64,000 nucleotides of DNA from Eubacteriales bacterium (GCA_045120465.1 JBGVEW010000022.1:12782-76781); one strand, 5' to 3'; positions 1-33,382 are shown, counted from the stretch's first letter. Numbers and translations are program-made. The notes: a model not told the origin generated them from the letters alone.

Positions 1-63
1 GAACGCCTTTTTTATGATATTCTCTACTTATAATTTTTATAGCAAAAGCAAAGGACGAAAAAA

Positions 64-1347: not shown

Positions 1348-1360
1348 AGGAGTGGACATT

Positions 1361-2209: not shown

Positions 2210-2212
2210 GAG

Positions 2213-3169
2213 ATGATCTTGACCGATTATTTCCGCTCAGCGCATGACGTAACGTGGGATTTTGCAATAGCCTCCGGCGTTCAGCACGGCGTTATCCGTC
2301 TGCCCGAGGACGGCAAATTTGACTACGCTGACCGCTCCCATTGGAATACCCTTGTAAAAAGATTCACCGATTTCGGCATCACGCCCGTTGCGCTTGAGCC
2401 CATGCCAAACGAGCTTCACGATCACATCAAGGCAGGCGACGACAAGCGCGATGAAAGCATCGAAAGGGTGATCTCCATGTTCCCGCACATGAGGGCACAC
2501 GGGATCGATACCATCTGCTTTAACTGGATGGCGCACATCGGCTGGCTGCGCACCTCGTCGGATTTCCCCGAGCGCGGCGGTGCCAGAGTGACCGAATTCA
2601 ACATGGCGGATTTCAAGCCCACAAGCGCAAGGATCACGGCGGACGAGCTTTGGGCAAACTACGAATATTTCGTAAAGGCGGTCGTTCCCGAGGCAGAAAA
2701 ATACGGGATCAAGCTGGGACTTCACCCGGATGACCCTCCCGTTCCCCGTCTTGGCGACGTGGAGCGCATCATGATCTCTAAGGAAAACATCAAGCGCGCG
2801 GTTTACGGGATCGTAAGCAGCGAAAGCCTTGGCATTACGATGTGTCAGGCAAATTACTTTATCATGGGCGAGGATCTGGAAAAGACCATCGCGGAATTTG
2901 CCGACCGCATCTTTATGGTGCATTTCCGCAACACCACGGGCGTTCCTGAGCATTTCCGTGAAACCTATCACGACAACGGGGATATTGACATGGCGGCCTT
3001 GATGAAGACCTACGTCAAAAACGGTGTCAACGTCCCCATTCGCGTCGATCACGTCCCCACCATGGCGGGCGAGATCTCCACGCTCCCCGGCTACGACGCG
3101 CTGGGAAGACTTTTTGCCATCGGTTACCTCAAGGGCATTCTTGATGCCTGCGGTGCCAACAACAGCTAA
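2213..3169 (+). CDS. uxuA: mannonate dehydratase family protein
   Basis: 318 codons. The TICFNWM and LHPDDPP motifs resemble UxuA. It sits in a uxaC-SDR context. Confidence 0.65.
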   Translation: MILTDYFRSAHDVTWDFAIASGVQHGVIRLPEDGKFDYADRSHWNTLVKRFTDFGITPVALEPMPNELHDHIKAGDDKRDESIERVISMFPHMRAHGIDTICFNWMAHIGWLRTSSDFPERGGARVTEFNMADFKPTSARITADELWANYEYFVKAVVPEAEKYGIKLGLHPDDPPVPRLGDVERIMISKENIKRAVYGIVSSESLGITMCQANYFIMGEDLEKTIAEFADRIFMVHFRNTTGVPEHFRETYHDNGDIDMAALMKTYVKNGVNVPIRVDHVPTMAGEISTLPGYDALGRLFAIGYLKGILDACGANNS

Positions 3170-3187
3170 TAAAGGAGGCATGGCTTT

Positions 3188-4681: not shown

Positions 4682-4702
4682 CCGATTGAAAGGAAAACGA
4701 AC

Positions 4703-5617
4703 ATGAACTTTAACGACAGAGAAAAAATCATTGCTCTGACCCCTCTTTGGAAGGGAGAGAGATTCGCCGACGGTCGCCCCAAGGTCGCGGACAAGCACCT
4801 TGACGCGCTTTACAAAATGACTCTGGAGGAGGTTTGGAAGCCCATTTTCATCCTCGGCTATGAGCACCAGTTCGTCGGCGGTGGTCTTGCTCCCCTGCAA
4901 ACGCTCCATGACGACGGCAGAAAGCTTGTCGGACGCGCAGTGACCTGTACCTACGCCCCCACGCGCCCCGATCTGCAAACGGTGCAGTTCAATCGCGGCG
5001 CGGAGGATGGACTTCGCGGAAACTACAACCAGTGGGTGGTCGATTCGCTGGTCGAGCGCGACGTTATCGTGTGCGACATGTACGACAAGATCTACAAGGG
5101 CACGTTCCTCGGCGGCAATCTTACCACCGCGATCTACAACCGCACGAAAACGGGCGGCGCCGTTGTCTGGGGCGGCATCCGTGACGTTGAGCAGATGAAA
5201 AAGGTGCCCGACGTGCAGGTCTATTACAGAGGCATCGACCCCACTCCCATCCGCGAATTCGTGATGAAGGACTGGAACGACATCACCAGCTTCGGCGGTG
5301 CCGTGTGCCTGCCCGGCGACGTCGTGTTCGGCGCGGGCGGCGGTGTGCTCTTTATCCCCTCTCACTTAGTCCAGGAGGTCGTTGAGGGCGCGGCAAAAAC
5401 CCACGTCAAGGACGATTTCGGCTTTGAGATGATCAATCAAGGCAAGTTTACAACGGCGCAGATCGACCGCGCGACGTGGACCGAGGATATGCTGGATATG
5501 CTGCTGGATTGGATCAAAACAGACCCCAGAGGCGAGGAATACCGTGACCTGGATTGGTCACAGGAATACGACCTAGCGCGCAACGGCGACCCCAACGACA
5601 CGCAAACGATGCTCTGA
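4703..5617 (+). CDS. RraA / HMG-CHA aldolase family protein
   Basis: 304 codons with GRAVT, DVIVCD, GGNLTTA and GGIRD motifs typical of the RraA-like fold. Confidence 0.6.
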   Translation: MNFNDREKIIALTPLWKGERFADGRPKVADKHLDALYKMTLEEVWKPIFILGYEHQFVGGGLAPLQTLHDDGRKLVGRAVTCTYAPTRPDLQTVQFNRGAEDGLRGNYNQWVVDSLVERDVIVCDMYDKIYKGTFLGGNLTTAIYNRTKTGGAVVWGGIRDVEQMKKVPDVQVYYRGIDPTPIREFVMKDWNDITSFGGAVCLPGDVVFGAGGGVLFIPSHLVQEVVEGAAKTHVKDDFGFEMINQGKFTTAQIDRATWTEDMLDMLLDWIKTDPRGEEYRDLDWSQEYDLARNGDPNDTQTML

Positions 5618-5728
5618 TAAAGCCAACGCACAGCAGAAGGGGCTAAGTTAATGACTCAGACGGTCATTATGGTTTATCACCACAATGATGAAAACGAACT
5701 GTACAAAGCGAAGTAAATATGGTATAAT

Positions 5729-6341: not shown

Positions 6342-6698
6342 ATGTCAAACAATATTTTGGTCGATCTGTCTATGGAATTTTCCGTTGCCATCGTCAATTT
6401 ATGCGACAGCATCAAAGGCAAATCCATTCTTACCAATCAAATTCTCCGAAGCGGGACAAGCATCGGCGCAAACATCCACGAGGCAAACTATGCACAAACG
6501 CCTCCCGACTTTGTATCAAAGCTCCAAATCGCACTCAAGGAATGCTACGAAACCGAGTATTGGCTTACCCTCTTTTCAAGAACAGGAATGATTGATGAAA
6601 ATACGTATAAACAATTCAAAACCGATTGCGGGAAAATCCGTCGAATTTTGATTTCCTCCATCAATACCGCAAAGGAGCATCATCAGCGAAGGAAATAA
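6342..6698 (+). CDS. four-helix-bundle protein (23S rRNA IVS protein / Avd-like family)
   Basis: 118 codons after a GGAGGG SD. The SIGANIHEA and ECYETEYWL patterns are typical of this family. Confidence 0.7.
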   Translation: MSNNILVDLSMEFSVAIVNLCDSIKGKSILTNQILRSGTSIGANIHEANYAQTPPDFVSKLQIALKECYETEYWLTLFSRTGMIDENTYKQFKTDCGKIRRILISSINTAKEHHQRRK

Positions 6699-6702
6699 AA
6701 AG

Positions 6703-6745
6703 TTGGACACATCATTTGCGTGCAATTGCGCGATGATGTGTCCAA
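6703..6745. repeat. H palindrome copy 1 (bidirectional terminator-like)
   Basis: TTGGACACATCAT-17 nt-ATGATGTGTCCAA, with an A-run before and a T-run after. It is identical to copy 4 over all 43 nt. Confidence 0.85.
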
Positions 6746-6776
6746 TATTTTTTTATTTTTCAGGATGGTTTTCAAG

Positions 6777-6938
6777 GTGAAAAAGCTAAAAATGGCGCGA
6801 GGTATAACGCTCACTTTCGAAGAAGGCTGCAACAAATATTTAGAGAATTGTCGTCAAAGGAATTTAAGAGAAGGCACTATCGAGCATTACAGGCAGAGCT
6901 ATGTGCAAGTTTGCAAAGTTTTTTATGTGAACTCTTGA
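6777..6938 (+). pseudogene. tyrosine recombinase/integrase, N-terminal fragment
   Basis: VKKLKMARGITLTFEEGCNKYLENCRQRNLREGTI looks like the start of an integrase N-terminal domain. It stops after 53 codons and is a near-duplicate of 13951-14100. Confidence 0.55.
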
Positions 6939-7028
6939 TTTAATAGATCGCACATGCTACAATATTTATGTTTATGTATTGAGAACGCTTTTTGATTCTT
7001 ACAGTATTTGTGAATTCAGGAGGAGATT

Positions 7029-8438
7029 ATGAAAAAGATCGCTGTTGTACACGGGGAGTGGAGTTCGGATGTAATGCGTCGTGCGTTTGCTTTGCTTAGC
7101 GAATTGATACTGGACTATACCTTTGAATATCCGGTTGGTCTCGATTGTGATAAGGCGGAAAACCTTGACGTTCTTTTGGAAAATTATCATCCTATTTACA
7201 TAGGAACAAAGCAAAATAACAGTTATATAAGAAGGAATTCGGATTTTTGTCTGCAACATCCCGAAGAATATGGAATAAACGTTTCAAACGGAAAGATAAT
7301 CGTCGAAGGATTTGATGACAGAGGTGTACTTTACGGTTGTATTGATCTTTATAATAAGTATTTTATCACACAGGAATATCCGCATAATGACAAATATGTG
7401 TTGCCCATAGAAAAATGGAGATTTGCTGATTATCGCTATTCGTCATATCCTTCCGTAAAAGAGCGTGGGATATGGACGTGGGGACATGTTATATATGATT
7501 GGCGCGGTTTTATTGACAATATGGTCAAGCTTAAAATGAACACGTTAACTGTCTGGAATGATTACCCACCCGTAAATGCGCGCGAGATGGTTGATTACGC
7601 GCACTCTTGCGGAATAAAAGTCATTTGGGGATTCCCTTGGCTTTGGGATACAAACTGCAAAAAGATACCGTTTGACAGGCTGTGTGAGTATAGCGAGGGG
7701 ATATTCCGAGGATATGATGAAGAATATCGAGATTTGCCGATTGATGGTATTTATTTTCAAACCGCTACCGAATTTGGCGAAGAAACCGTTGGCGGTATCA
7801 CGGTTGCCGAGGCTGTGACCGCATTCGTAAATCACACAGCAGCCTATTTTTATGAGAAATACCCCAATCTTGAGATACAGTTTGGGCTTCATGCCGAATG
7901 TGTTAAAAACAAGCTTGAATACATTGAAAAAGTTGATAAACGTATCAAGATCGTTTGGGAGAATTGCGGTTCATTTCCTTTTGCGTATATGCCGGATAGA
8001 CTGGAGGATTTCACCGAAACCGTGGATTTTGTAAAGCGAATCACGACGCTTCGGGGAGAAAATGAGCGTTTTGGGGCTGTTACTAAGGGGCTTACTAAGC
8101 TTGATTGGTCGGCTTTTGAACATCTTGAAGGTGCGATATGGACAGGAGTAAGCTCTAAGTTGATGAAAGAAAATCGCATTATTCGCAAACGCAAGATATG
8201 GCGCTATTTGCAAGCATACTGGTTAACAAATTCCGACAAGGCACTCGAGATGGTTCGAATCATGGCAAATCATACCCGCGGGAATACCACTATCACCGCA
8301 CTTGTTGAAGACGGAATGTTTGAGGAAAATATTTATTTTCCTGTTGCCCTGTTTTCAGAAATGTTATGGAATGCCGATGGCGATATAAAAAGCATAATAA
8401 ACGAGGTCGCTTTGCGTTCATACGTAGAGTTTGCATGA
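7029..8438 (+). CDS. hypothetical glycoside-hydrolase-like TIM-barrel protein
   Basis: 469 codons after an AGGAGGAG SD. The GFDDRGVLYG N-domain motif and RGIWTWGH / MNTLTVW barrel-like motifs are present. The gene is visibly AT-richer than its neighbours. Confidence 0.55.
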   Translation: MKKIAVVHGEWSSDVMRRAFALLSELILDYTFEYPVGLDCDKAENLDVLLENYHPIYIGTKQNNSYIRRNSDFCLQHPEEYGINVSNGKIIVEGFDDRGVLYGCIDLYNKYFITQEYPHNDKYVLPIEKWRFADYRYSSYPSVKERGIWTWGHVIYDWRGFIDNMVKLKMNTLTVWNDYPPVNAREMVDYAHSCGIKVIWGFPWLWDTNCKKIPFDRLCEYSEGIFRGYDEEYRDLPIDGIYFQTATEFGEETVGGITVAEAVTAFVNHTAAYFYEKYPNLEIQFGLHAECVKNKLEYIEKVDKRIKIVWENCGSFPFAYMPDRLEDFTETVDFVKRITTLRGENERFGAVTKGLTKLDWSAFEHLEGAIWTGVSSKLMKENRIIRKRKIWRYLQAYWLTNSDKALEMVRIMANHTRGNTTITALVEDGMFEENIYFPVALFSEMLWNADGDIKSIINEVALRSYVEFA

Positions 8439-8469
8439 TGTGATAATTTTTAGAATACTTCACATAAAA

Positions 8470-8677
8470 CACAGAGATGATGGGTCTGATCGGAGTCGGG
8501 GTATGACCGTTGCTGTTGCAGTTGCTATCGAAGAGGCAAGCAAGTAATCCTTGATTTATAAGGCTTTTTGAGATTTACAAGACTTCATTGGGGCTTTGTA
8601 AAACTCAAATCGCACAAAATTGAACAATAAAAAGTTGGACACATCATTTTGGAGATTTCTCCATATGATGTGTCCAA
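8470..8677 (+). repeat. R module copy A (candidate structured non-coding repeat, internally deleted) ending in H2
   Basis: It aligns with copies B, C and D from CACAGAGATGATGGG to AATCCTTG and shares the tail with copy B. Confidence 0.7.
8635..8677. repeat. H palindrome copy 2
   Basis: TTGGACACATCAT-TTTGGAGATTTCTCCAT-ATGATGTGTCCAA, with a flanking A-run and T-run. It lies between convergent genes. Confidence 0.85.
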
Positions 8678-8694
8678 TATTTTTCGTTGCTTGA

Positions 8695-8847
8695 TCAGTT
8701 ATAAAACGTTAAAAATGAACCTTTGGCATTTCTGTCGAGTCGTCCCCACCTGGAATGGTTGGCAACAGGGGCGTCGGGAGGCGCTTTGCAGGCCGTAACA
8801 CACGTCACCAACGCCAACACAACCAACAGAATAAAAAGCTTTTTCAT
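8695..8847 (-). CDS. small putative lipoprotein (50 codons)
   Basis: MKKLFILLVVLALVTCVTAC is a signal peptide with a lipobox-like VTAC. The ORF starts 3 nt after the micro-ORF stop. No clear SD. Confidence 0.3.
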   Translation of the reverse strand: MKKLFILLVVLALVTCVTACKAPPDAPVANHSRWGRLDRNAKGSFLTFYN

Positions 8848-8850
8848 AGC

Positions 8851-8982
8851 TTATTTGATGAAGGGGGTGGGGAGAAGGCTATGCTCTTCTCCCTCAAATC
8901 CGTCACTCGACGTCAGGACGTCGTCTGCACAAAGTGCAATCAACTCGACCGTTGGAATCACATATTCTTTTGTCATTCTCAT
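8851..8982 (-). CDS. acidic micro-ORF P1 (43 codons)
   Basis: A GGAGG SD lies 7 nt before the ATG, 13 nt downstream of the phosphoesterase stop. It shares the Y-x-x-P-x-[IV]-E-L...D-x-L-T-S-S motif with P2 at 18622. Confidence 0.5.
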   Translation of the reverse strand: MRMTKEYVIPTVELIALCADDVLTSSDGFEGEEHSLLPTPFIK

Positions 8983-8995
8983 ATCGATTCCTCCT

Positions 8996-11900
8996 TTACT
9001 GTGCGTTCCTGTACGCCTTGGCACTGACGCCGTAGCGATAGAGTGCTTTTGCCAGAGCCTGCATTTCCTCGTTCTGCGTAGCACCGTTGCACATTGCGTA
9101 CGCGTATGCGTTGACACTGTAGCTGATGCTTGCCACGTTCGTGCCGTCATAAAGCAGCTCGACCGTGTAAACGGTATCAAAATTGACCGCGCTGATGCCG
9201 TTGGTGCTAAGCTTATACGTGCCGTTTCCAAGGTGGATAAGATCAGAGAGCGCGTAGCTCGTTCCGTTGACCTTTACGGTCACAAGCGAGAAATCCTCAA
9301 CGTCGGCAAAGATCCTGATCACGATGCTGTTGACCGTATCAAAGCGCACGGTTGCCGACGAGAAGTGCAAGCTTGCATCGGTGTTGCCCGTCAGCGTCAT
9401 TGCGTCGCTCGCAACGGGAGTGACGGTCGAGGGGACGATCTCCTCCGTGCCGTCAAGAATTGCGCCATTGCCTGCGTAATCCTTGTAGTTCTGTGATGCT
9501 TGACCGTAAGACAGAAGATCTGCGATCAGGGTCTGCATCGCCGCATACTGTGCATCGGAAAGACCCAGCTGTGCCGCGCTCTTGGAAAGCAGATTCAAGC
9601 AGTTTTGCTTGATGCTGTAATCCTCCTGCGTTGCGTAAACCGTGTCTCCGACCAGAACCTCAGCGTCGATCAGATCCGCCATCTGCTGAGGCGCGATGCC
9701 GCCGAAGGTGAAGACGTATTCACCGTTTACGACCTTGTAATCGGTCACGGTGGTGGTCTGTCCGTTCATGGTGAAGCGGATCGCAAGATCTCCATTGTCC
9801 AGAATCGCGGGATTGACGACATTGACGTAGTAGTTAATCGCCAGATCCGCGCCGAGGTTGACAGAGGCGCCGGTGAGCTTCAAGTCTTCCGCAGGCTCCT
9901 CAACATCCCCCGTTATCGTAAAGCTATCCAGCACAAGACCGTCCGCTTGTCGAATAGTAACCACGAGGTTGTTCCCCTCTACGTCGATCACCGTATATGC
10001 CGGTTGGTATCTGTCGGGGGAGATGATCGTCATCATATTTTCTTCATTGAGTTCGGCAATACCGTCGTGGTTTGGTGCACAAGAACCGATGGTAGTGTAG
10101 ACCGTGCCGATACCCTTTTGGATCACATCGGGATTTTCCTTTGTCACGATTTGTCTGTTTTTCATCGGATAGGTTCTGGTTACGTGATGCATATGTCCGG
10201 AAAGCACGAGGTCCACTCCGTATTCCTCGATAATATCTACAAGCCATTCATTGTTATTGTTAGCGCCGCTCATATGATACGCGGGGCGGTGCGTCATCAG
10301 AATTGTCCATTTTGCATCCTGATTTGCTTGCAGATCCGCTTTTAACCATGCTCGTTGCTGCTGCATCAGCGCTTTGACGTTGTAGCGTCCCGTAGCACCG
10401 GAGTCAACCACGACAAAATGCACGTCTCCGTAATTAAAGGAATACACGGTCTCGTCGAGGTAATTTACGATCTCCGCACCTATGGGAGTTGCGTCCAGAA
10501 TCGCAGTCGTGTCGGTGTACGCCGCATCTCCGCCGTTGTTCGGGTGATTGAAGTACATATCAAAGAAATCGTGCTTGTCGTGCACACCGCCGCCGATGGT
10601 TGCAAAGTGTGGGATCTGTGTGACAATTCCGCCGAGCGACTTAAAGTACATGCCGTACTCAGCAGGAGCGTTGGTCTCCGTTATATCTCCCGTATTCAGG
10701 ATCATTGCGGGTGCGGTCTCCTTCAATGCCTGTGTGATCGCCACCTGTGAATACATATACGCCTTGGGACTGGAGCCTGTTCCTCCCCAGGTATATGCCT
10801 GATTGTCTCCAAAGGCAATAAAGGAAAAGTCGTCAACGTTTTCCTTTGCGGTGGTAAAGAAGTAGCTCTTGCTCCAATCGGTCTCCTCGTTTGTGCTATT
10901 CTTGATCCCCACCTTGTATTCGTATCGCGTGCTTGCCTTCAGCTCCGTAACGTCTGCCTTAAAGTAGGCTTCCGTATCGCTGAGCGATTCTTCTTCCTTG
11001 ATTGCATCAACGACCGACCAAGCGCTCTCGCCGACCGCACGGTACTTGATCGCCATTGCACCCTCGCCGATGAAGGATTCGAGTGCCGTCCAGGCAAACG
11101 CTCTGTCGTATCTTGCGTCGGTAAAGGAGGTTACGAGGTTGTATACGTTCGCGTCAAAGCCCTCGTAAACGGGCTCCTCGGAGAGCAGGGTATATTCATT
11201 CAACGTAACGTCTGCGTAGCTGATGCTTTCCTTCGATACGCTGTTCACGCCGTAAATTCCTACGGTAAAGTCTCTTACGGTCTCATCGATCCGCATACCG
11301 CGACGGATCGTGCCACCCTCGGGTAAGGTGACGGAGCAGAGCAACATTTTTTGTGAGGGATTGACGCGGGCATTGATGTGGTACGTTCCGTGCCCGTAGC
11401 TTCCCTTGTTCGCGCCGCCAAGCATACTCATACCGCTTTCCTTGATGGTGAGAAGCTCATAGTCACCCATCATTACCGCGGTAGCATCACCGTTGAAGGA
11501 AAGGTCACAGTCATAGATCGTTTCTTGCCCCTCGGGAACGCTCAGATCGGAGGATGCTACGAGCTCAAAGGCGTTGATCGCCGTGAATTTAAAGTTGCTG
11601 ATCTCTACCTTTCCGTCTTCACAGCGGAATACCCAGAATTTGCTGCATTCCTCATAGCTTGCGCCGGTAGGATCAACGGTGCGGGTGTATGCTCTGGAGT
11701 ATCCGTTTTCCGCGTTTGTGATCGAGGTATATATTGAGTCGGATGCCGTGGTGTTATTCCACGTCATCGTTACGGAATACGTCCCCGTACCGTAATTACT
11801 GTCAACGAGCTTTTTGCCGGAGGCAAGAATTGCTCCATCCGAGCTTCGGAACTGAGCGACGCCCGTCGTTCCGCCAAAGGTCATATTCAATTCACGCGTC

Positions 11901-12898
11901 CATGTGCTTTCGGTAATCAACGACTTGTTGTTTCCAAAGTCCGTGATATCCACGTTAAAGGAAATGCGATAGATTCCCTTGCTTTCAACGTTGGGGATAT
12001 TATCCCACCACAAGGATACCGAGTCGCCTTTTTTCATATAGAGCTTTCCGTTGTATCCGATCGGGGCTGTCGGAGTGTAATTGTACCCGTAGTTTGACGA
12101 GCTGGGAGGTGTTTGTTCAACCGTCCAGATCCCATCGCCCTCCGTCGTCAGGAAGGACTCGCCGATCTCCTCAAAGCCGGAAATGGAAAGTGCTCCGTCA
12201 GTAAAGGTGAAATTGGTGATTTCTACCGCACCGTCCTCACAGCGGAATGCCCAGAACGGGCGGCATTCCGCGTATGTCTCCGTGGTGTCATCAACGCTTT
12301 TCGTTTTTGTTGCATTGATCTCGTCGCCCTTGGTGACCGTGGTCGTTATCGTATTTGGGGAGACCGTAGTATCCCAAACGATCTTTACGGAATACGTATC
12401 CGATCCGTAGTTGCTTTCCGAAACACCGCTTCCGGACATCATAAGCTTTTTTGCGGTTGTGTGACAGCTTCGGAACTGAGCCGCATCATACCCTCCGCCC
12501 AAAAGAACGTTCAGCTCTCTTTTCCAAACGGATTCACTGATGAGGGATTTGTTGTTTCCATTGTCGGTGACATCAACGTCAAAGGAAAGCGTATACGTGC
12601 CCGTTTTCGCAACACCGGGGATCTTGCTCCAGTAAAACGCCGCGGAGTTACCCTCGGTTAAGGAAAGCTTGCCATCCGTGACTGTCGGTGCAGTCGGGTT
12701 ATACGAGGCGAAGTTGGTCAGCGACGTCTTTGGCTCTATTGCCCAAAGCCCCGAATTGAAGCTCTCCTCGTATACTACGTCGGGCTCATCGCTCGCGCTC
12801 ACTGCGCCTGCCATGATGCTGCTCACAGAAATCATTTGAACGAACATCACAAGTGTCAAGAAAACCGACAAAGCCTGTTTGATTTTTGATTTGTACAT
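8996..12898 (-). CDS. secreted multidomain metallophosphoesterase (calcineurin-like) with duplicated N-terminal jelly-roll-like domains
   Basis: ATG 12898 follows a GGAGGAAAG SD. The signal peptide is MYKSKIKQALSVFLTLVMFVQMISV. Motifs GDNQ, NTGDITE, HRPAYH and SGHMHH are present. Two paralogous ~190-aa domains share SF[DN]VD[VI]TD.GNNKSLI and FRCEDG.VEI[TS]NF. Confidence 0.75.
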   Translation of the reverse strand: MYKSKIKQALSVFLTLVMFVQMISVSSIMAGAVSASDEPDVVYEESFNSGLWAIEPKTSLTNFASYNPTAPTVTDGKLSLTEGNSAAFYWSKIPGVAKTGTYTLSFDVDVTDNGNNKSLISESVWKRELNVLLGGGYDAAQFRSCHTTAKKLMMSGSGVSESNYGSDTYSVKIVWDTTVSPNTITTTVTKGDEINATKTKSVDDTTETYAECRPFWAFRCEDGAVEITNFTFTDGALSISGFEEIGESFLTTEGDGIWTVEQTPPSSSNYGYNYTPTAPIGYNGKLYMKKGDSVSLWWDNIPNVESKGIYRISFNVDITDFGNNKSLITESTWTRELNMTFGGTTGVAQFRSSDGAILASGKKLVDSNYGTGTYSVTMTWNNTTASDSIYTSITNAENGYSRAYTRTVDPTGASYEECSKFWVFRCEDGKVEISNFKFTAINAFELVASSDLSVPEGQETIYDCDLSFNGDATAVMMGDYELLTIKESGMSMLGGANKGSYGHGTYHINARVNPSQKMLLCSVTLPEGGTIRRGMRIDETVRDFTVGIYGVNSVSKESISYADVTLNEYTLLSEEPVYEGFDANVYNLVTSFTDARYDRAFAWTALESFIGEGAMAIKYRAVGESAWSVVDAIKEEESLSDTEAYFKADVTELKASTRYEYKVGIKNSTNEETDWSKSYFFTTAKENVDDFSFIAFGDNQAYTWGGTGSSPKAYMYSQVAITQALKETAPAMILNTGDITETNAPAEYGMYFKSLGGIVTQIPHFATIGGGVHDKHDFFDMYFNHPNNGGDAAYTDTTAILDATPIGAEIVNYLDETVYSFNYGDVHFVVVDSGATGRYNVKALMQQQRAWLKADLQANQDAKWTILMTHRPAYHMSGANNNNEWLVDIIEEYGVDLVLSGHMHHVTRTYPMKNRQIVTKENPDVIQKGIGTVYTTIGSCAPNHDGIAELNEENMMTIISPDRYQPAYTVIDVEGNNLVVTIRQADGLVLDSFTITGDVEEPAEDLKLTGASVNLGADLAINYYVNVVNPAILDNGDLAIRFTMNGQTTTVTDYKVVNGEYVFTFGGIAPQQMADLIDAEVLVGDTVYATQEDYSIKQNCLNLLSKSAAQLGLSDAQYAAMQTLIADLLSYGQASQNYKDYAGNGAILDGTEEIVPSTVTPVASDAMTLTGNTDASLHFSSATVRFDTVNSIVIRIFADVEDFSLVTVKVNGTSYALSDLIHLGNGTYKLSTNGISAVNFDTVYTVELLYDGTNVASISYSVNAYAYAMCNGATQNEEMQALAKALYRYGVSAKAYRNAQ

Positions 12899-13022
12899 TG
12901 TCTTTCCTCCATTCAAAAAAGATTGTAACAACATTGTAGCACAGTTGCATTGACAAAACCTTACATCTGTGATACAATAAATTTAGGAAAACTACGATTT
13001 TTTGAAATTGGAGGATAGAAAA

Positions 13023-13835
13023 ATGAAGATTCAAACGCGCTACTCCGGATACAATTACGCCACATTCAGCGAATATTACGAAGGCAAGCACGGGTATCAG
13101 GAGCATATTCACCAGTTTCTGGAGGTCCATTGCGTTCTGGAGGGAGAGACCGTGATCACCGTTGGCGGTGCGGCGCAGGTTGCACGCGCGGGAGATCTCG
13201 TTGTAATCTTCCCTTTTCAATCGCATAGCCAATATACACCGGACTATTGCAAAATATGGGTAGGTCTGGCATCCATCTCCTATGTCAACGACCTGCTTTC
13301 CCGTGACCATTTCTGCGTTCCAGACAAAAACGTGTTCACACCCTGCCCCACAGCATTTGCCTACATCAAGGAACGTCTGCCGTCGCCTCACTGGATCAAG
13401 CGCCCCTCGTCCCTGACTAAGATTCGGTTCAGAATTACCAAGGCACTTTATTTTGTGATCCTTGACGAGTTTTTGCGTCAGGTAAAGATCACCTCCACGA
13501 GTATCAACACAACTGCGCTGACGGCGACGTATATGTACGTTAACGAGCATTATAGAGAAAGTAATCTTACATTGAAAAAGCTTGCCACCGCCATTGGATA
13601 CACGCCAAATTATCTCTCCTCCTGCCTTTCGTCGATACCGAATGCGAATTTTCGCGATATACTGAACTCGGCGAGAGTGGACCACGCAAAGAAGCAGCTC
13701 ACTTCCACAGACAAGCGGATTCTGGATATTGCATTGGAAAGCGGATTTTCCTCCGAAGCCGTCTTTTACGGTATTTTTGAAAAATTTGTGGGAATGACGC
13801 CAAGACAATACAGATTAGCAAAAAGGAATACGTGA
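13023..13835 (+). CDS. AraC family transcriptional regulator
   Basis: ATG follows a GGAGGA SD. It has a cupin-like N-terminus and a C-terminal HTH (ESGFSSEAVFYGIFEKFVGMTPRQYR). Confidence 0.85.
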   Translation: MKIQTRYSGYNYATFSEYYEGKHGYQEHIHQFLEVHCVLEGETVITVGGAAQVARAGDLVVIFPFQSHSQYTPDYCKIWVGLASISYVNDLLSRDHFCVPDKNVFTPCPTAFAYIKERLPSPHWIKRPSSLTKIRFRITKALYFVILDEFLRQVKITSTSINTTALTATYMYVNEHYRESNLTLKKLATAIGYTPNYLSSCLSSIPNANFRDILNSARVDHAKKQLTSTDKRILDIALESGFSSEAVFYGIFEKFVGMTPRQYRLAKRNT

Positions 13836-13876
13836 CTCGCGGCAAGCTATCATTTGTAATGCGAGCAACAAAAAAA

Positions 13877-13919
13877 TCGGACACATCATTTTGAGCTTTT
13901 GCTCTGGTGATGTGTCCAA
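13877..13919. repeat. H palindrome copy 3 (slightly degenerate arms)
   Basis: TCGGACACATCAT-TTTGAGCTTTTGCTCTG-GTGATGTGTCCAA, with an A-run before and a T-run after. Confidence 0.8.
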
Positions 13920-13950
13920 TATTTTTTTGTTTTCAAGGAGGATTTCCAAG

Positions 13951-14310
13951 GTGAAAAAGCTTAAAATGACTCGAGGCGTAACACTCACTTTTGAGGAGGG
14001 CTGCAACAAATATTTAGAGAATTGTCGGCAGAGAAATTTAAGGGAAGGTACTATCGGACACTACCGACAGAGCTACGTGCAATTCTATAAGTTCTTCGAC
14101 CCGAAGCTGCCTATTGAGGACATTGATGAGCAGACCTATAAGGACTACGTTTTGCATTTGAAATCGACTTTGGATAACGATGTTAGTTACATTTCAATAC
14201 TGAAAGGAACGTTATATTATGATTTATGCTTATTGCCGCGTCAGCACACAACATCAGAACGAAATATTTTCGTCTTTGTTAGTGTTACAATGGATGAAAG
14301 AGCAAAATGA
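13951..14310 (+). pseudogene. tyrosine recombinase/integrase, N-terminal fragment
   Basis: GTG follows an AAGGAGGA SD. VKKLKMTRGVTLTFEEGCNKYLENCRQRNLREGTIGHYRQSYVQFYKFF... stays integrase-like to about codon 80, then becomes unrelated sequence. Confidence 0.55.
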
Positions 14311-14389
14311 AAAAAATTTTCACACTTTTTATTATGCAAATACCTGTTTTTATAGCTTGCAAACAGGCGCGCGCTCGTATATTCCGTAA
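14219..14389 (+). pseudogene. serine recombinase (resolvase/invertase) N-terminal stub
   Basis: MIYAYCRVSTQHQN matches the Y-x-R-V-S-T-x-x-Q catalytic-serine motif. The resemblance is lost after about 14 codons. Confidence 0.35.
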
Positions 14390-14658
14390 GGCTGTACCGC
14401 AACATATATTCGCTGAAAACGGAAAGCTCCTTTATTTTTCCTTTTTTACTCTCATATCATTGACAAATGCACAAAATTACAAAAAAGGACGTTTATCCTT
14501 TCGGAAAGTACGTTTCACACCTTAAAAAGGAAGCACGCTTCATATATAATATAGACATCCCACTAAAGAAAGCGAAGGGAAAGCGTCTGCTTCCTCGCCG
14601 TTCCGCTTTGGAGCGCTTCCTTTGCGAATACGTAAACAAATCATATTTCATCGGCACA

Positions 14659-14700
14659 CAGAGCCGCCCCACTCCGATCCAAGGAGATGGGGCGGCTCTG
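14659..14700 (-). terminator. hairpin downstream of the LysR gene
   Basis: CAGAGCCGCCCCA...TGGGGCGGCTCTG forms a 13-bp stem. Confidence 0.45.
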
Positions 14701-14718
14701 CTTTCCGCCTCTTATGCG

Positions 14719-15567
14719 TCAAAAATCACAGTCGGCAAGATATTCAACGAAATCGTTCAGCTGGTCATCGAGGCTCCCCTGCTTGTAATACAGGCAAACG
14801 GAGCTGCTCAGGCGCATATCCCTGACGTCGAGATCAACCAACCCGCGCGGCGCGGGATCGAGCGCCGACTCGAGCCACAGCCCAAGTCCGACACCTGCGG
14901 CAGTGCTTTCCGTAAAGCACTGGCGGTCATTCGTTTGCAATACGATATTCGGATAAAACCCGGCGTTTTTACAGCAATCGAACAAAATGCTATTCGCCCC
15001 AAGCTCGATCTCCAGGGTAACGAATCTCTCGTTTCTCAAGTCCCGCATCGTAAGGGGCTTGCCGACAAGCGGGTGATCCGAAACCGCCTTGAAGCAAATT
15101 TGATAGTTTCCAAGCTCACGGCATCTGTATTCCGTGTAATCGTCGCAGGGCTTATCGATGATGATGTCATAATCAAAGCATTCCCGGTTGCTTGTGTCAA
15201 ACATTGCGATGAAATGCACGTTCGGATGAAGCTCTTGATATCTGAGCATCAAGCGGCTTACGTAATCCTGCATCGCAAGGATCAAAATCCGTATTTCCGT
15301 TTTCATCGGCTCTCGGTTTTTGATTTTGGAAACCGTTCGGTCAAGCTCCTCAAAAATAACGCCAAGCGAATTTTGAAGAAGCTTGCCGTTCTCATTCAAG
15401 GAAATGCGGTTGCTTTGCCTCTCAAAAAGCTTGCATCCAAGCTCCTCCTCAAGGCGCTTGATCGAAGCCGAGACGGAGGACGCGGGAATCATATACTTTT
15501 CCGCCGCCCTTGCAATGTTTTCATTTTTTGCGGTCTCATAAAAATACCGCAGCTGTAAAAGCTCCAT
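14719..15567 (-). CDS. LysR family transcriptional regulator
   Basis: ATG 15567 follows a GGGAGGGATG SD. MELLQLRYFYETAKNENIARAAEKYMIPASSVSASIKRLEEELG is a classic LysR HTH. Confidence 0.85.
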   Translation of the reverse strand: MELLQLRYFYETAKNENIARAAEKYMIPASSVSASIKRLEEELGCKLFERQSNRISLNENGKLLQNSLGVIFEELDRTVSKIKNREPMKTEIRILILAMQDYVSRLMLRYQELHPNVHFIAMFDTSNRECFDYDIIIDKPCDDYTEYRCRELGNYQICFKAVSDHPLVGKPLTMRDLRNERFVTLEIELGANSILFDCCKNAGFYPNIVLQTNDRQCFTESTAAGVGLGLWLESALDPAPRGLVDLDVRDMRLSSSVCLYYKQGSLDDQLNDFVEYLADCDF

Positions 15568-15730
15568 AATCATCCCTCCCATAGCCCTATCTCGAACGGG
15601 CTCTCTCCCATTATACCATATCCTTCGCAATATGGCAAGCATATTTTATTATATTCTTTACGTTATTACAAAAATGTGATATAATGAGTCCGTACCAATC
15701 CCCGTGAAAAAAATTATATGGAGGAAGCTT

Positions 15731-18610
15731 ATGAAAAAAAACACCCCAAAAGTCGTTTCCCTGGTACTGACCCTGGCGATGCTGATCGGCACGCTCCCGC
15801 TCGCCTTGTCGGTACGCACGGAAGCCGCATCGCAAACCACCGTCGGAGGTGTGGTCACCACCCCCGGTGCAACCGAGGTCCTGAAGTATTTCAAGGAGGA
15901 CACCGCCTTCGATATGTCCGAGAAGGTCAACGCCCCCATGACCTTTGAATTTGATCTTGCCGGATGCGGAAACATCGCCGGTGCCGTTTCCGGCGGCGTC
16001 ATCATCGGAAATTACAGCGAGGATGCATCCGCATATATCAACGTTGAGGCAGTGGACTACGGAAAGCTCATCGTTCGCGGCAAGCACACAAGCGGCTCGG
16101 AATGGAGGGCAACCTTCTATCAAAGCGAGGCCGACATCAGAACGAACGCGGTGCGTCATTATACCGTTACGGTAGGCTCCGGCTGGACAGGTGTCAGCCT
16201 GTACGTTGACGGAGCACACAAGGCAACCAGATATCCCGCCAGCATTACGCTCCCCACCGCCGCAGAATTTTCCCACCCCTTCAGAATCGGCGGCGACTAC
16301 CGCGACGGAAACACCAACTATTTCAAGGGACTGATCTATTCCGTGGCTCTCTTCAGCGACGTTCGCACCGCCGATGAGATCAAGGCGGATAAGAGCATAG
16401 CGAAAACGTGGAGCAGTGCTACGCACGGCTTGATTGCGGCGTATGACCTTACCAGAATGGGCAAGGCGGCTCTTCGAAATTACGCCGAAAGCGGAAACAG
16501 CTTGATCTATCATAACGAAAGCGGCATCCTGACGGAAAACTTCGGAACGTATGAAATCGATCAAAAATTCACCGACCATCTCGAAACGGTAGAGGCTTGG
16601 ATCTATTTTCCAAAATACTATTCCGGCAGCATCGGCGGCACGATCATCGGCAACTATCGCAGCTACAACGGTGCCCGCGCTATTTTTGAGATCTATAAGG
16701 ACGGCACGCCCCGCCTTTCCTACACCACCGAGTCCGGCACGACCGCATACCACAGATTTACCGACGTAGACGTGAGAACGGGAAGTTGGCAGCATATTGC
16801 CATTGTTCACGACGTTGCCAACAAGGAGGCACGCTGTTACGTAAACGGTGAGCTTCGCCAGACGATCTCGGGTGACACCGTTGTCGCCTACAGCGCAGAC
16901 ATCCTTGATAACAAATTTCTCATCGGCAGAGATACCGCTCTGCGTTATGCAAATGGCGACGGCGAATACTGGGAAAACAGAAAGGACCAGTATTTCAAGG
17001 GCTTTATCAAGGAGGTTCGCGCTTACTCCGACGTGAGAACCGCAGAGGAGATCGCAGAGGATTATCAGGGCTTCTTGAAATTGGCTGACAAACAGCTCCT
17101 TGCGGCATACGTGATCTCTCCGGAGGATGCATACGGCACTCTCAGAGATTTCTCCGGAAACGGCTATGACGCAGACTATCATCAGCTCCTTTGGGAAGAA
17201 GAGTACGTAAAGCCCATTGGGGATTATGCATACAGCCTTGCGGTGGTAGGTGACACACAAACCGTTACCGCCCAGAATCCAGAGCTTCTGAAAAACATCT
17301 ATCAGTGGATCCTCGAAAACAAAGAGGAAAAGAACATTCAGTACGTGATCGGACTCGGAGATATTACCGAGTACGGTGTGGACAAGGGACACGCAAACTA
17401 CGATGAAGCAAGAGCAAACGCAGAGTGGGCGGCGGCAAAGGAAGCGATCTCCCTCATGGACGGAAAGATCCCCTACTCCCTGATCCGCGGCGACGGTCAC
17501 GACGGCATTGAGCTGTTCAATCAGTATTTCGCTAACCACGCGGGATACACGCAGAACATTGCGGGATATTGCGAGGAGGGACGGATCGATAACGTTTACC
17601 ACACCTTCAAGATCGGAAGCGTTGATTATCTGCTGCTCTCCCTTGATCACGGAACCAAGGATCACGCCATCGAATGGGCAAACGAGGTGATTGCGTCGCA
17701 TCCCACGCACCGCGTGATCGTCACCACGCATCAGTATATCCGCGGCGACGGCTCGATGATCGTAACGGGAGAGTCCGGCTCCGCCTCTGCTTACGATCCC
17801 GCCAACAACAATGCAGAGGTCTTGTGGGAGGAGCTTTTGAGCAAGCATCCGAACATATTTATGGTCTTGTGCGGACACGCAAGTGCGGATGACGTCGTTG
17901 TTTCCAAGCAGATCGGTGACTACGGCAACGTGGTAACGCAGGTTCTCGTTAACCCCCAGACCATGGACGGCGAATATTACCAGGGCTCCAAGGGTATGGT
18001 AGCAATGCTCTATTTCTCCGAGGATGGAGAGAACGTGCAGGTACAGTATTACTCCACCCTGAAGGACACCTATCGCCCCACAAGCTCGTTCACGGTTTCC
18101 TACGGTGCTACCCGTATGCCCTCCTATGATAACATCGGCGAGGAGTACGTAATTGTTCAGAACGTGGAAAGCGGAATTTACTCCGTGGTGGAAAACACCT
18201 TCTTCACCTTCCTTGGCGGCTCTCTTCGCTACGGAGACGCAAAGGACGGCTTCGCCAACGTTCGTTTTGGATATCGGTTCAACGCGTCCGTGGATCTCGA
18301 GGCAACGACCTGGGGCTGGAGCTACGGTGTCGCAGGCTCGGGACATTCCAACTATACCGCGGGTGTGAATTACACGAGCGATACGAACGTCACCAATCTT
18401 GTGATCACCTCTGTCCCGGAGGCTTATTATTCTGCCGAGCTTGAAAGCCGTCTTGTCTTTGAGATCACCGTTGACGGCATCGCCTACAGGGTGTTTGATC
18501 GCGCGCGCACCAGAAGCATCCTCGGCATCGCCCAAAACATGGTGAACAACCCTACCGAACCGCAGGCGGCAAGGGACTACGCAGAAAAGATCGTCAATAC
18601 GTGTGCGTGA
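15731..18610 (+). CDS. secreted LamG-domain metallophosphoesterase
   Basis: ATG follows a GGAGGA SD and there is a signal peptide. Two LamG-like modules end in YFKGLIYSVALFSDVRTADEI and YFKGFIKEVRAYSDVRTAEEI. Phosphoesterase motifs VVGDTQ, GLGDITE and CGHASADD are present. Confidence 0.75.
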   Translation: MKKNTPKVVSLVLTLAMLIGTLPLALSVRTEAASQTTVGGVVTTPGATEVLKYFKEDTAFDMSEKVNAPMTFEFDLAGCGNIAGAVSGGVIIGNYSEDASAYINVEAVDYGKLIVRGKHTSGSEWRATFYQSEADIRTNAVRHYTVTVGSGWTGVSLYVDGAHKATRYPASITLPTAAEFSHPFRIGGDYRDGNTNYFKGLIYSVALFSDVRTADEIKADKSIAKTWSSATHGLIAAYDLTRMGKAALRNYAESGNSLIYHNESGILTENFGTYEIDQKFTDHLETVEAWIYFPKYYSGSIGGTIIGNYRSYNGARAIFEIYKDGTPRLSYTTESGTTAYHRFTDVDVRTGSWQHIAIVHDVANKEARCYVNGELRQTISGDTVVAYSADILDNKFLIGRDTALRYANGDGEYWENRKDQYFKGFIKEVRAYSDVRTAEEIAEDYQGFLKLADKQLLAAYVISPEDAYGTLRDFSGNGYDADYHQLLWEEEYVKPIGDYAYSLAVVGDTQTVTAQNPELLKNIYQWILENKEEKNIQYVIGLGDITEYGVDKGHANYDEARANAEWAAAKEAISLMDGKIPYSLIRGDGHDGIELFNQYFANHAGYTQNIAGYCEEGRIDNVYHTFKIGSVDYLLLSLDHGTKDHAIEWANEVIASHPTHRVIVTTHQYIRGDGSMIVTGESGSASAYDPANNNAEVLWEELLSKHPNIFMVLCGHASADDVVVSKQIGDYGNVVTQVLVNPQTMDGEYYQGSKGMVAMLYFSEDGENVQVQYYSTLKDTYRPTSSFTVSYGATRMPSYDNIGEEYVIVQNVESGIYSVVENTFFTFLGGSLRYGDAKDGFANVRFGYRFNASVDLEATTWGWSYGVAGSGHSNYTAGVNYTSDTNVTNLVITSVPEAYYSAELESRLVFEITVDGIAYRVFDRARTRSILGIAQNMVNNPTEPQAARDYAEKIVNTCA

Positions 18611-18621
18611 GGTAACGGTCG

Positions 18622-18768
18622 ATGAACAAAAAATACGAATCTCCCGAAATAGAGCTGCTTTGGTTGGCTCTTGACATCCTGACCTCGTCCCTGAACGCGT
18701 CGGACAATGACGTTCTCTTCGGTGACGGAAACAACGATGACAAACAGAATTGGGGACAGTACTACTGA
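18622..18768 (+). CDS. acidic micro-ORF P2 (48 codons)
   Basis: A GAGG SD lies 9 nt before the ATG, 11 nt after the phosphoesterase stop. MNKKYESPEIELLWLALDILTSS is related to P1. Confidence 0.5.
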   Translation: MNKKYESPEIELLWLALDILTSSLNASDNDVLFGDGNNDDKQNWGQYY

Positions 18769-18830
18769 ATTCTCCGAACGAAAGACACGTATCACACCAC
18801 CCAAGCGACAGCTTTAGAAAAGGAGCTCAC

Positions 18831-19931
18831 ATGAACGAAAAAAGATTAAAAACGGGCGTTGCCTATTACGGCAACAGAATGCTCAGCCACGCGATCACGG
18901 ACATGAAGGAGATCGTCAGAGCCGATATGGACATCGTGGTACATATGCTCACGCACAACGACATCGAGCGCAGCTTTTCGGTGATGAAGGATATTTTCAA
19001 GGCAACCGAGGCGGAGGGGCTTGAGATCTGGGTAGATAACTGGGGCATCGGCGGTGCTCCCGGCGACAAGGGACATTTCCTCGCTTACCACCCCGAGGCA
19101 CACTCCTATTACGGGGACGGAATGATGCATCCGATCCAGATCTGTCTGAATGCTCCCTCCTATCGCGAGTTCGTCAAGGATTGGGTAAACAAGGTTGCGG
19201 AGCTTGGCGGAAAAACGCTGTTCTGGGACGAGCCGAACATTCCGCACGTAAGGATCGCGGGCACCGACGATTACTACTCCGCATGCACCTGCCCCACCTG
19301 CCGCAAAATGTTCGAGGAGCGCTTCGGCAAGAGAATGCCCACCGTGATGGATGAGGACGTTGCCAAGTTCAGAAACGACGTGATCATAGAATACCACAAC
19401 TTTATCACGGAGTATGCCAATTCGGTAGGCATGAGAAACGTCGTTTGCTTTATGCCCTATCAGCTTTCGGGCATGGTGGCGCAAAGCAAAAAGGATCAGC
19501 TTCTCAATTTTGACATCGATGCCATCTGCGCGATGCCTTACGTCGATAACGTCGGCACGGATCCTTATTGGTACGGCAACGATACCAACTTAAGCTTGGG
19601 CGGCGCGCCAAGCGCTTACGAGTATAACTACAACGCGACGAAGCTTTGTCTTGAAAAGGCGGGCAAGCACGGCAAGGACCATAACATCTGGATCCAGGGC
19701 TACGACGCCCCCGCAGGAAGAGAGGAAGAGATCATCGAGGCTACCGAGGCGGTCTATGATGCGGGAGCCAGAACCGTGCTCTCCTGGAGCTACCGCGCTG
19801 CCGAGTCTCACTCCTACCGCTCTGCCAACGTCGAGCGTTCCTGGCTCTGCACGGTCGAAGGGATGAAGCGCATCAAATCCATGGAGCGCGATCGGATCCT
19901 TGCCGAGAACAGAAAGAAATACATGAAGTAA
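18831..19931 (+). CDS. hypothetical protein (possible TIM-barrel sugar enzyme)
   Basis: ATG follows an AAGGAG SD and starts a 366-codon ORF. No motif that I can assign. Confidence 0.55.
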   Translation: MNEKRLKTGVAYYGNRMLSHAITDMKEIVRADMDIVVHMLTHNDIERSFSVMKDIFKATEAEGLEIWVDNWGIGGAPGDKGHFLAYHPEAHSYYGDGMMHPIQICLNAPSYREFVKDWVNKVAELGGKTLFWDEPNIPHVRIAGTDDYYSACTCPTCRKMFEERFGKRMPTVMDEDVAKFRNDVIIEYHNFITEYANSVGMRNVVCFMPYQLSGMVAQSKKDQLLNFDIDAICAMPYVDNVGTDPYWYGNDTNLSLGGAPSAYEYNYNATKLCLEKAGKHGKDHNIWIQGYDAPAGREEEIIEATEAVYDAGARTVLSWSYRAAESHSYRSANVERSWLCTVEGMKRIKSMERDRILAENRKKYMK

Positions 19932-20057
19932 CCTCCACTGTCCGAGGATGGCGGCGCCCGATGCGCTCGCCCTCCTCGGACACTTGTTTTCTCCATGCGG
20001 TCCGTTTATGTAAATCCTGCCGAAAAATCAAAAAAAGTACAAAAAAAGCAAACTCTT

Positions 20058-20450
20058 TGACCACATCATTTACGGCGACATCAAAACGCGATATAATGTT
20101 TTCAGGAAATACGCAAACGATGTGTTCGGCGCAAAGATTTTGCAGTTCAAAAGGCTTGTTTTATAAGGCTTTTTATCATTTTAATGCGTCTCAAAGCTCA
20201 ATACCGCACAGAAATGATGGGTCTCATCGGAGCCGGCAACAACCCCATGGTTGGAAACAGCCGCAGGCTGTTTTGATGACATGTTGCAGTCGCAGTTGCG
20301 ATCGAAGAAGCAAGCAAGTAATCCTTGCGGCGTAAGTTTTTTGAGCTTTGCAAGGCTTCATAGGGGCTTTGTAAAAATCGAATTGCACAAAATTGAACAA
20401 TAAAAAGTTGGACACATCATTTGCGTGCAATTGCGCGATGATGTGTCCAA
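20058..20450 (+). repeat. R module copy B (promoter + ~300-nt non-coding core + H4)
   Basis: It has TTTACG-17 nt-TATAAT (20069-20097), core 20204-20327 and a covarying hairpin at 20255-20273. The tail is shared with copy A. Confidence 0.7.
20408..20450. repeat. H palindrome copy 4
   Basis: Identical to copy 1 and lies between convergent genes. Confidence 0.85.
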
Positions 20451-20472
20451 CATTTTTATATCAATCATTCTT

Positions 20473-31738: not shown

Positions 31739-31742
31739 TTGT

Positions 31743-32237: not shown

Positions 32238-32252
32238 TGGGAAAAACCCAAA

Positions 32253-32371: not shown

Positions 32372-32381
32372 GAGCAAAACG

Positions 32382-33380: not shown

Positions 33381-33382
33381 CT

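Follow-up and report, generated by a model that had tools for sequence, protein, structure and literature searches.

Probable tandem array of decayed integrative islands behind a GGGtGRT-family gene of an uncultured gut Clostridia bacterium

The stretch of DNA considered here, referred to as the window, comprises 64,000 nt of an Eubacteriales bacterium (GCA_045120465.1, JBGVEW010000022.1:12782-76781; the contig is called C22), whose genome is a 2.59-Mb metagenome-assembled draft of 121 contigs. An earlier note on this sequence described two gene blocks with the same end architecture, in which a palindrome (H) and an integrase fragment form the left end and a module (R) and another H form the right end. 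The two blocks probably belong to an array of about 47 kb in which decayed integrative islands stand in tandem, and which lies 3' of a conserved single-copy gene of the GGGtGRT family. The islands would have been inserted one after another into the tail of this gene, generating a hypervariable locus in the genome of an uncultured gut Clostridia bacterium. This kind of locus is known from elsewhere; it has not been described for the GGGtGRT gene, for this integrase or for the H hairpin. The anatomy of the array, the association of its parts in related genomes, the repeats of intact elements and a nested series of decay products are observed directly and form the basis of this reading.

The GGGtGRT gene on C22 is complete. 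It codes for 332 amino acids (aa), lies 3.9 kb before the window and ends 198 nt before the first H of the contig, and its product carries the GGGTGRT motif and ends in ...VEMMGLIGAGNNPMVGMTVAVAVAIEEASK before the stop codon, as seen from the translation upstream of this first H. The GGGtGRT gene is prominent in metaproteome papers on the gut and the rumen. The alignment of the regions upstream of all H copies identifies R as coding sequence. The R modules match residues ~293-332 of the GGGtGRT protein, nothing else in the genome matches them, and therefore R is a duplicate of the 3' end (the last ~30 codons) of the gene standing at the head of the array. It is not a module of the element's own, as had been proposed, and it contains the probable recombination region discussed below. 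The R copies of the window start at 8474, 20211, 24511 and 35376, and R modules precede not only H2 and H4, at the right ends of the two blocks, but also H5 (24722) and H6 (35589). Modules A (8470-8650) and B (20207-20422) share 82-92% identity in three collinear pieces. The copies at 20211, 24511 and 35376 belong to a variant, R', which has a conserved 26-nt hairpin insert that is also found in a relative of the same genus. The insert, AACAGCCGCAGGCTGTTTTGATGACA, is located at 20256-20281, at 24554-24579 and at the matching place in 35376-35487, and consists of a small hairpin followed by stop codons.

The spacers between R and H are of several types (G and L numbers are used here for genomes and loci). 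The first H is separated from the GGGtGRT stop codon by a spacer of 198 nt (C22:8888-9085) that holds four or five CATGAATTG-type repeats, and a similar spacer is present in L146, from another metagenome-assembled genome (MAG). Spacer type S2 is built from two tandem GC-rich hairpins, GGGCGAAC...GTTCGCCC and GGGCGTTC...GAACGCCC, and is found at 24620-24710 and 35490-35580 of the window; it recurs across several genera, at the distal site of G134 and in L082 and L026.

H has the form GGACACATCAT, 16-19 nt, ATGATGTGTCC, with an A-run on its 5' side and a T-run on its 3' side. The window contains seven copies, at 6705-6743 (H1), 8637-8675 (H2), 13879-13917 (H3), 20410-20448 (H4), 24722 (H5), 35589 (H6) and 43150 (H7). 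The motif GGACACATCAT-(10-30 nt)-ATGATGTGTCC is matched exactly by four of these, where shuffled sequence gives an expectation of 0, and the three others, including H3, deviate from it by one arm base. Two further copies and a degenerate one lie on C22 upstream of the window, bringing the contig to nine H copies between contig positions 9086 and 55970, plus the degenerate tenth at 11851, over a span of ~47 kb. The rest of the 2.59-Mb assembly has a single further, diverged H, on contig C69. As 10 of the 11 copies of the genome fall in one 47-kb locus, H is a locus-specific and not a genome-wide repeat. The C69 copy (C69:10112-10149), the only one outside the array, lies between convergent genes and has compensatory stem changes (GGACACGTCAT/ATGACGTGTCC); beside it are paralogues of cargo genes of the array (EamA transporter, AraC regulator and the tail of the giant phosphoesterase).

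The four H palindromes of the two blocks, the integrase stubs 31 nt after H1 and H3, and the R modules before H2 and H4 are all located where the earlier note had placed them. H1 and H4, given there as identical over 43 nt, are identical over the 39-nt core, and with the flanks included 61 of 63 nt are equal. The segments running from H1 and H3 into the integrase genes, which had been taken as near-duplicates of about 220 bp, are homologous and not near-identical, with 83-85% identity over 175-213 nt.

When considered from the outside in, H begins with a near-invariant outer stem of 11 bp; a T-rich internal loop follows on the 5' side, and then come a variable inner stem (3-5 bp) and a loop that is usually TTTT. 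The typical folding energy of H is about -18 to -27 kcal/mol. The variable inner segment folds better than its shuffles (-3.3 versus -0.4 kcal/mol, p = 7e-15, for 83 distinct copies), and the outer stem shows compensatory changes, for example AGACAC...GTGTCT and GGACACGTCAT...ATGACGTGTCC. By its folding and these compensatory changes, H is a selected hairpin. A stable hairpin with a T-run on the 3' side and an A-run on the 5' side has the features of an intrinsic bidirectional terminator, and H is predicted to be a strong terminator of this type, for which function it may be under selection. A simple terminator scan flags only the H at 24722, its rule allowing no internal loops, which the other copies have. 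Copies without R upstream (lone H) lie directly 3' of cargo stop codons or between convergent genes. The Rfam scan of the window gave no matches, and the exact sequence of H1/H4 was not matched in metagenome contigs.

The site of recombination is indicated by intact elements in related genomes. In G106, of the same genus as the host, a 9.2-kb element with an intact integrase lies between two direct repeats of the gene tail, identical over 98 bp, each spanning from GTGGAAATGATGG... to four bases beyond the stop codon. H is found only between the proximal repeat and the integrase, and a different, GC-rich terminator lies 3' of the distal repeat. It follows from this one-sided H that the crossover took place within R and that H was brought by the element; it likewise follows that the right-hand H of each of the two reported blocks belongs to the previous occupant of the site. 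The 14.1-kb element of G134 carries the integrase, a resolvase, a SocA/Panacea gene and an hsdR/S/M type I restriction-modification system, and has R-H at both ends, the end repeats being 114 nt long with 93% identity. The two R copies of G134 differ at seven codons, all seven differences being synonymous, and those of G241 by five synonymous and two non-synonymous differences; as the differences are mostly synonymous, the extra R copies must have worked as genuine gene tails. Integration leaves the target gene intact, as judged from the full 332-aa open reading frame (ORF) of the host genome and the intact tails in G134, G241 and G106, with mostly synonymous differences.

The repeats of G106, G134 and G295 share the start GT(A/G)GAAATGATGG, and their first 38 nt are identical within each element. 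The crossover within R is probably located in these first ~38 nt. The same ~38 nt contain ATGATGGGTC, which matches the H arm at 9 of 10 positions, and arm-like half-sites occur at fixed positions, about -151 and -94, in the conserved arm 5' of distal R copies, including 20060-20069 and 20117-20126 of the window. When these sequences are compared, GACACATCAT appears as a candidate recognition motif of the recombinase, and the integrase may also bind to the arms of H. The previous proposal of a family of integrative elements is thus retained in that the recombinase is found beside H and R at the other end, and in that the crossover is not in the centre of H, the G106 element having recombined in R. 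H is, however, not the end of the element, as had been claimed, but sits inside it, between the replacement tail and the integrase.

All copies of the integrase in the host genome are decayed, as stated earlier, and only stubs are found, without any full-length copy. The family survey covers 301 genomes of the same family, in 97 genera; the integrase is matched in 21 of these genomes, and ~12 of them have open frames of 314-463 aa. The full-length integrases of the relatives are 311-340 aa long, with Pfam Phage_integrase and SAM-like domains. The integrase in L021 matches PF00589 at 3e-32 and has SAM-like domains, without an extra N-terminal arm-binding domain. Its best relatives in the Protein Data Bank (PDB) are XerA, an XerC-like protein and XerD, with IntI4 found only at E = 2e-4, and all NCBIfam models score the integrase far under their cutoffs. 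A scan of public species genomes gave 79 integrase loci, all from Acutalibacteraceae, Oscillospiraceae, Eubacteriales or Clostridia MAGs of human, ruminant and deer guts, and the 77 loci with enough upstream sequence were counted. In 66 of the 77, H lies 28-52 nt before the integrase match, and the integrase is within ~250 nt of the GGGtGRT stop codon; the start of R is found 160-180 nt before H in 62, and the GGGxGRT motif, indicative of the whole gene, in 53. The usual order in the relatives (62-66 of the 77 loci) is therefore the GGGtGRT 3' end, spacer, H, ~31 nt and a full-length Xer-like integrase of ~311 aa, as also observed in G134 and G172. Full-length copies, when looked for together with their flanks, are accordingly adjacent to H and R in 62-66 of the 77 loci. 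Metagenome relatives of the integrase stub, mostly on contigs of 1-3 kb, agree with the link between H and the integrase, and H travels with the integrase across >13 genera.

At ~10 loci a related integrase occurs elsewhere without H, for example beside a tRNA or within an AT-rich element that is conserved. In L096, L098, L099, L109 and L128, from several MAGs, an integrase of ~80% identity is found in conserved AT-rich surroundings that contain neither H nor the GGGtGRT gene; here another type of element may be employing a recombinase of the same family. A full resolvase gene is present in the intact G134 element (L021:6092-6784) and in the homologous stretch of G241, and a serine-recombinase stub follows the second integrase stub of the window; a resolvase may thus be a standard component of the element.

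Within the family, H is present in 54 of the 301 genomes and in 30 of the 97 genera, and a reversed-pattern control matches 1 of the 301. In nearly all genomes the copies share a single contig, and each array that was examined has them beside the GGGtGRT gene. Their polarity is uniform in 11 of 12 arrays examined, the exception being G292, in which two opposite copies flank a gene resembling that of a REP-associated tyrosine transposase (RAYT; REP, repetitive extragenic palindrome). The loop type tracks the integrase type and not the host genus. The same-genus genomes G226 and G276 have the GGGtGRT gene without H or integrase, and their native terminators differ from each other and from H. Since same-genus genomes without H carry unrelated terminators, all H copies in the host genome are considered to be imports. 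Of the empty sites that the earlier note suggested to look for, examples are given by G226 and G276, which are of the same genus and not near-isogenic to the host.

The decay of the islands was surveyed at 70 H sites in 12 genomes, with the site classes assigned by pattern rules. Upstream of H, R is full at 20 sites, partial at 17 (mostly cut from the upstream side, with 11 of them forming a clean series) and absent at 33. In G135 the R remnants measure 315, 227, 145, 141, 124, 120 and so on down to 61 nt. Downstream of H the integrase remnants (full length, 139, 72 and ~40 codons, and the leader only) form the mirror image of the R series. With both types of remnants nested and H as the fixed anchor, the most plausible view of a lone H is that it is the terminator hairpin left over from an old insertion. 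Deletion of dead DNA, with the hairpin retained, explains the lone H copies as well as the two reported blocks, and a second recombination mechanism is not needed for them.

The following sequence of events can be proposed. The incoming element would be a circle, having an attachment region with the order conserved arm, R, spacer, H, ~31 nt and the gene of the two-domain Xer-like tyrosine recombinase. On recombination in R, the GGGtGRT gene would end in the tail copy of the element, terminated by the H of the element and followed by the integrase and the cargo, and the old gene tail would be displaced to the far end as the R repeat, along with its terminator. Repeated integration would stack the islands in tandem. 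The integrase and the displaced R would then decay by deletion, and H, if kept as a strong bidirectional terminator between the modules, would become a lone H.

Several observations weigh against this description. No circular contig, no excised circle with an attP site and no empty site in a near-identical strain was found, and the joins at the repeats are those of a metagenome-assembled draft. In the window, the integrase stubs at H1 and H3 are without any R upstream, and five R-H units are without a trace of the integrase. The insert of R' would truncate the protein, which makes it unlikely that the R' copies are displaced functional gene tails. The decay model also requires several deletions that each stop exactly at the edge of H. 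Spacer, loop and arm types are reassorted among the copies, the distal H of G295 looks like a hybrid of two loop types, and in G134 the spacers next to the two identical H copies are unrelated. Modules that are homologous among the arrays of the genus g47 are also poorly accommodated, as their similarity stops within ~10 nt of H and their ranks differ from array to array, although their order is mostly collinear. The reassortment, the G295 hybrid and the identical pair of G134 point to extra recombination at or near H, either homologous or mediated by the integrase.

It is conceivable that H is itself the site of recombination, as an attC-like hairpin of an integron-like platform, where the Xer-like integrase captures and shuffles H-terminated cassettes, and where integration at R only moves the platform between hosts. 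If this is true, the GGGtGRT locus of the Acutalibacteraceae would be an integron-like platform in Gram-positive anaerobes, in which modules are captured, reordered and lost behind a highly expressed gene. Lone H copies right after a cargo stop codon at 33 of the 70 sites, arrays of 1-3-gene modules with up to 17 H copies in some relatives, the breaks of the g47 modules near H at different ranks, and the pattern R-H-cargo-lone H-integrase, present twice in the host genome, would all fit such a platform. The same can be said of the structure of H (conserved outer stem, asymmetric T-rich internal loop and variable inner stem), of the higher frequency of H arrays (54 of the 301 genomes) than of the integrase (21 of the 301) and of the simple two-domain integrase in the neighbourhood of Xer and IntI. 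We nevertheless regard this explanation as unlikely. The intact G106 element recombined in R and its far end is without H, the R and integrase remnants are graded as decay predicts, and the mostly collinear order of the shared g47 modules fits differential loss. The modules are not mostly single, co-oriented cassettes without promoters; they comprise 1-10 genes, located on both strands, and have AraC/LysR regulators of their own. The arms of H are 16-19 nt apart and, on either strand, read 5' GTTGGAC ... GTCCAAT/C 3', an order opposite to that of attC, 5' RYYYAAC ... GTTRRRY 3', and the integrase scores 52 bits with TIGR02249 (cutoff 265) and 31 with NF011946 (cutoff 435). The identification of H as attC was rejected on this core-base polarity and on the integron-integrase scores.

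Multiplication of H by a RAYT of the IS200 type, with the link to the integrase being secondary, is very improbable, even if in the genus g47 H stands on either side of RAYT-like genes carrying the HxH and YxxxNP motifs, an arrangement present in G246 and G292 only, fragments of such genes occur in the arrays of G131 and G193, NCBIfam REP_Tyr_transpos gives 71.5 bits and four identical H copies are found in one G135 array. The host genome, G106 and G135 all bear H and have no RAYT homologue; the RAYT family is present in 130 of the 301 genomes, its closest members being mostly in genomes without H; H is confined to one locus and not dispersed through intergenic regions; and the identical copies in G135 accompany R remnants, and hence are duplicated R-H units. 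A RAYT as the driver of H was rejected after the survey of the 301 genomes. The RAYT/IS200-like Y1 transposase genes themselves are located at L058:9478-10236 (G246) and L061:4681-5356 (G292), with the motifs MPDHIHV and YIHENP, and the G292 unit lies outside the array in opposite polarity. Hardly credible is also the notion that H is the GGGtGRT gene's own terminator and that the repeats stem from local segmental duplication without a mobile element, or from assembly artefacts. It is true that just one H, 50-100 nt beyond the GGGtGRT stop codon, is present in many genomes that lack the integrase, and that the host genome is a draft of 121 contigs, but same-genus genomes carry other, unrelated terminators, H accompanies the integrase through >13 genera with a loop type set by integrase type and not by genus, the modules between the H copies are mutually unrelated, and the same architecture recurs in dozens of independent assemblies.

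Serial insertion of islands into the gene tail, the preferred reading, has its closest known counterparts in the tycheposons and in the Dehalococcoides ssrA islands. In Prochlorococcus, the tycheposons are elements with a tyrosine recombinase that enter a conserved gene in its 3' part, where incomplete copies of the gene remain as repeats; older elements are moved further into the island by those that come later, fragmented integrases and extra partial targets are found, and the cargo consists of adaptive accessory genes (bioRxiv 10.1101/2020.12.28.424599). The copies of the 3' end of the target, the accretion, the broken integrases and the accessory cargo are shared with the array described here; in contrast, its target is the protein-coding GGGtGRT gene and not a tRNA gene, its integrase is short and Xer-like, H occurs with every integrase and outlives it, and the hosts are gut Clostridia. 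In Dehalococcoides, multiple tandem islands are located within 100 kb 3' of the single-copy ssrA gene and are bounded by direct repeats of the gene's 3' end, with the integration module at the target-side edge, and islands without an integrase are read as accretion or decay; the target is a tmRNA gene, the repeat is 20 bp long and the integrase has been compared with Ccr-type recombinases of the staphylococcal cassette chromosome (SCC) (PMC3146451). As with the tycheposons, earlier islands are displaced by later ones, and incomplete targets and broken integrases are left behind. Unlike in those islands, the repeat observed here is coding sequence of ~98 bp and is accompanied by a conserved hairpin.

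ICESt1, ICESt3 and the related cis-mobilizable elements of Streptococcus thermophilus use a tyrosine integrase at the 3' end of the protein-coding housekeeping gene fda; they accrete in tandem with elements that lack an integrase and keep their att sites, and they are either conjugative or descended from conjugative elements. A target at the 3' end of a protein-coding gene and the tandem accretion are common features with the present array. To our knowledge no hairpin like H has been described for these elements, and no conjugation or mobilization genes were seen in the islands here. Integrons, and clusters of attC sites lacking integron integrases (CALINs), resemble the array in that gene modules are closed by hairpins with conserved outer stems and a variable centre, in that a recombinase related to Xer and IntI is at the head and in that many arrays are without the recombinase; they differ in the score of the integrase model, in the polarity of the attC core and in having co-oriented promoterless cassettes, and the fresh insertion used the gene tail, not a hairpin. 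Xer-dependent integrative elements and pdif modules have inverted arms of 11 bp around a dif-type central region of 6-8 bp. The Xer-like recombinase and the 11-bp arms are similar, whereas the arms of the host genome copies are separated by a centre of 16-19 nt, which has its own stem, and the enzyme is encoded by the element and not by the host.

The two reported blocks belong to a 47-kb array with at least six R-H units and three integrase stubs. H, R, element-arm and recombinase parts are all on the plus strand, as are the 469-aa cargo gene and the RHS island. From left to right, the array starts with the GGGtGRT gene with its R, followed by H, a very decayed integrase stub and a gene for a 719-aa protein. 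The latter, the cargo ORF of the first island (C22:9369-11528), ends in frame inside an R remnant (...VVIEEASK and stop), using the stop codon of the remnant and the H terminator. A partial R, H and the hexuronate cluster come next, and then the lone H1 (6694-6756), which has no R upstream and abuts the stop codon of a 23S-IVP-like gene. The first integrase 5' stub (6777-6938; 53 codons of an Xer-like tyrosine integrase) begins with GTG 31 nt after the palindrome of H1 and is followed by the gene for a cargo protein of 469 aa without a Pfam match (7029-8438). R module A (8474-8547), a copy of the GGGtGRT tail (EMMGLIG...EEASK and stop) with an internal deletion, and a spacer of type S1 precede H2 (8626-8688), after which a 1312-aa secreted metallophosphoesterase (minus strand) and an AraC-type regulator (plus strand) are encoded (8996-13835). 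The lone H3 (13868-13930) is followed by the second integrase 5' stub (13951-14190; ~80 codons), again with a GTG start 31 nt after the palindrome and with 86% aa identity to the first, and by the serine-recombinase stub (MIYAYCRVSTQHQ...; 14219-14389). The cargo at 14719-19931 comprises a LysR regulator (minus strand), a 968-aa Laminin_G_3/metallophosphoesterase protein and a DUF4838-like protein.

The right part of the array begins with the conserved element arm 5' of R module B (20048-20210), in which the degenerate H-like inverted pair 20060-20069/20117-20126 encloses a promoter-like TTTACG-17-TATAAT. R module B (20211-20321), of the R' type, is followed by H4 (20399-20461), with the core of H1, and by a GH30 glycoside hydrolase module. 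An element arm, R' module C (24511-24619), a type-S2 spacer and H5 (24722-24759) make up 24434-24759, and the RHS-repeat toxin island (25244-35000) is the cargo between H5 and H6. An element arm, R' module D (35376-35487), a type-S2 spacer and H6 (35589-35627) then occupy 35219-35627, glycoside hydrolase genes follow, and H7 (43150-43189), a lone and slightly diverged copy, is the last. The right edge of the array could not be defined by synteny within the genus: the genes 3' of the G106 element sit inside another host contig (C109), and there is no simple empty-site comparison.

The modules between the H copies hold secreted metallophosphoesterases, glycoside hydrolases of families GH20, GH30, GH31 and GH43, AraC/LysR regulators, an EamA transporter and the RHS toxin locus. 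The hexuronate cluster (uxaC to an RraA-like gene; 1-5620 of the window), which lies between two H copies, is found at other sites, without H, in six other species of the genus, and C48:47160-47281 of the host is an exact empty site for the copy in G341. Chromosomal backbone as its origin was rejected on the varied sites in the six species and on the C48 empty site. The different sites identify the cluster as a movable accessory module and do not tell its route into the array. High-copy repeats unrelated to H are present at 47860-47990, 59409-59815 and 63259-63512 of the window and at the contig end C22:80037-80179, and dozens of copies of them, with identities of 72-100%, are spread over many contigs; the copy at the end of C22 is common to >10 contig ends.

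The array of islands behind the GGGtGRT gene would explain a hypervariable locus in about a fifth of the sampled genomes of a large, uncultured Clostridia family of gut and rumen. In the host genome this locus gathers glycoside hydrolases, sugar-use modules with their regulators and an RHS toxin island, and in relatives it also carries a restriction-modification system and a SocA/Panacea-domain (antitoxin-like) gene. The GGGtGRT tail, the H hairpin and the Xer-like integrase provide three markers by which such islands may be recognized in metagenomes, and intact elements are identified in G106 and G134.

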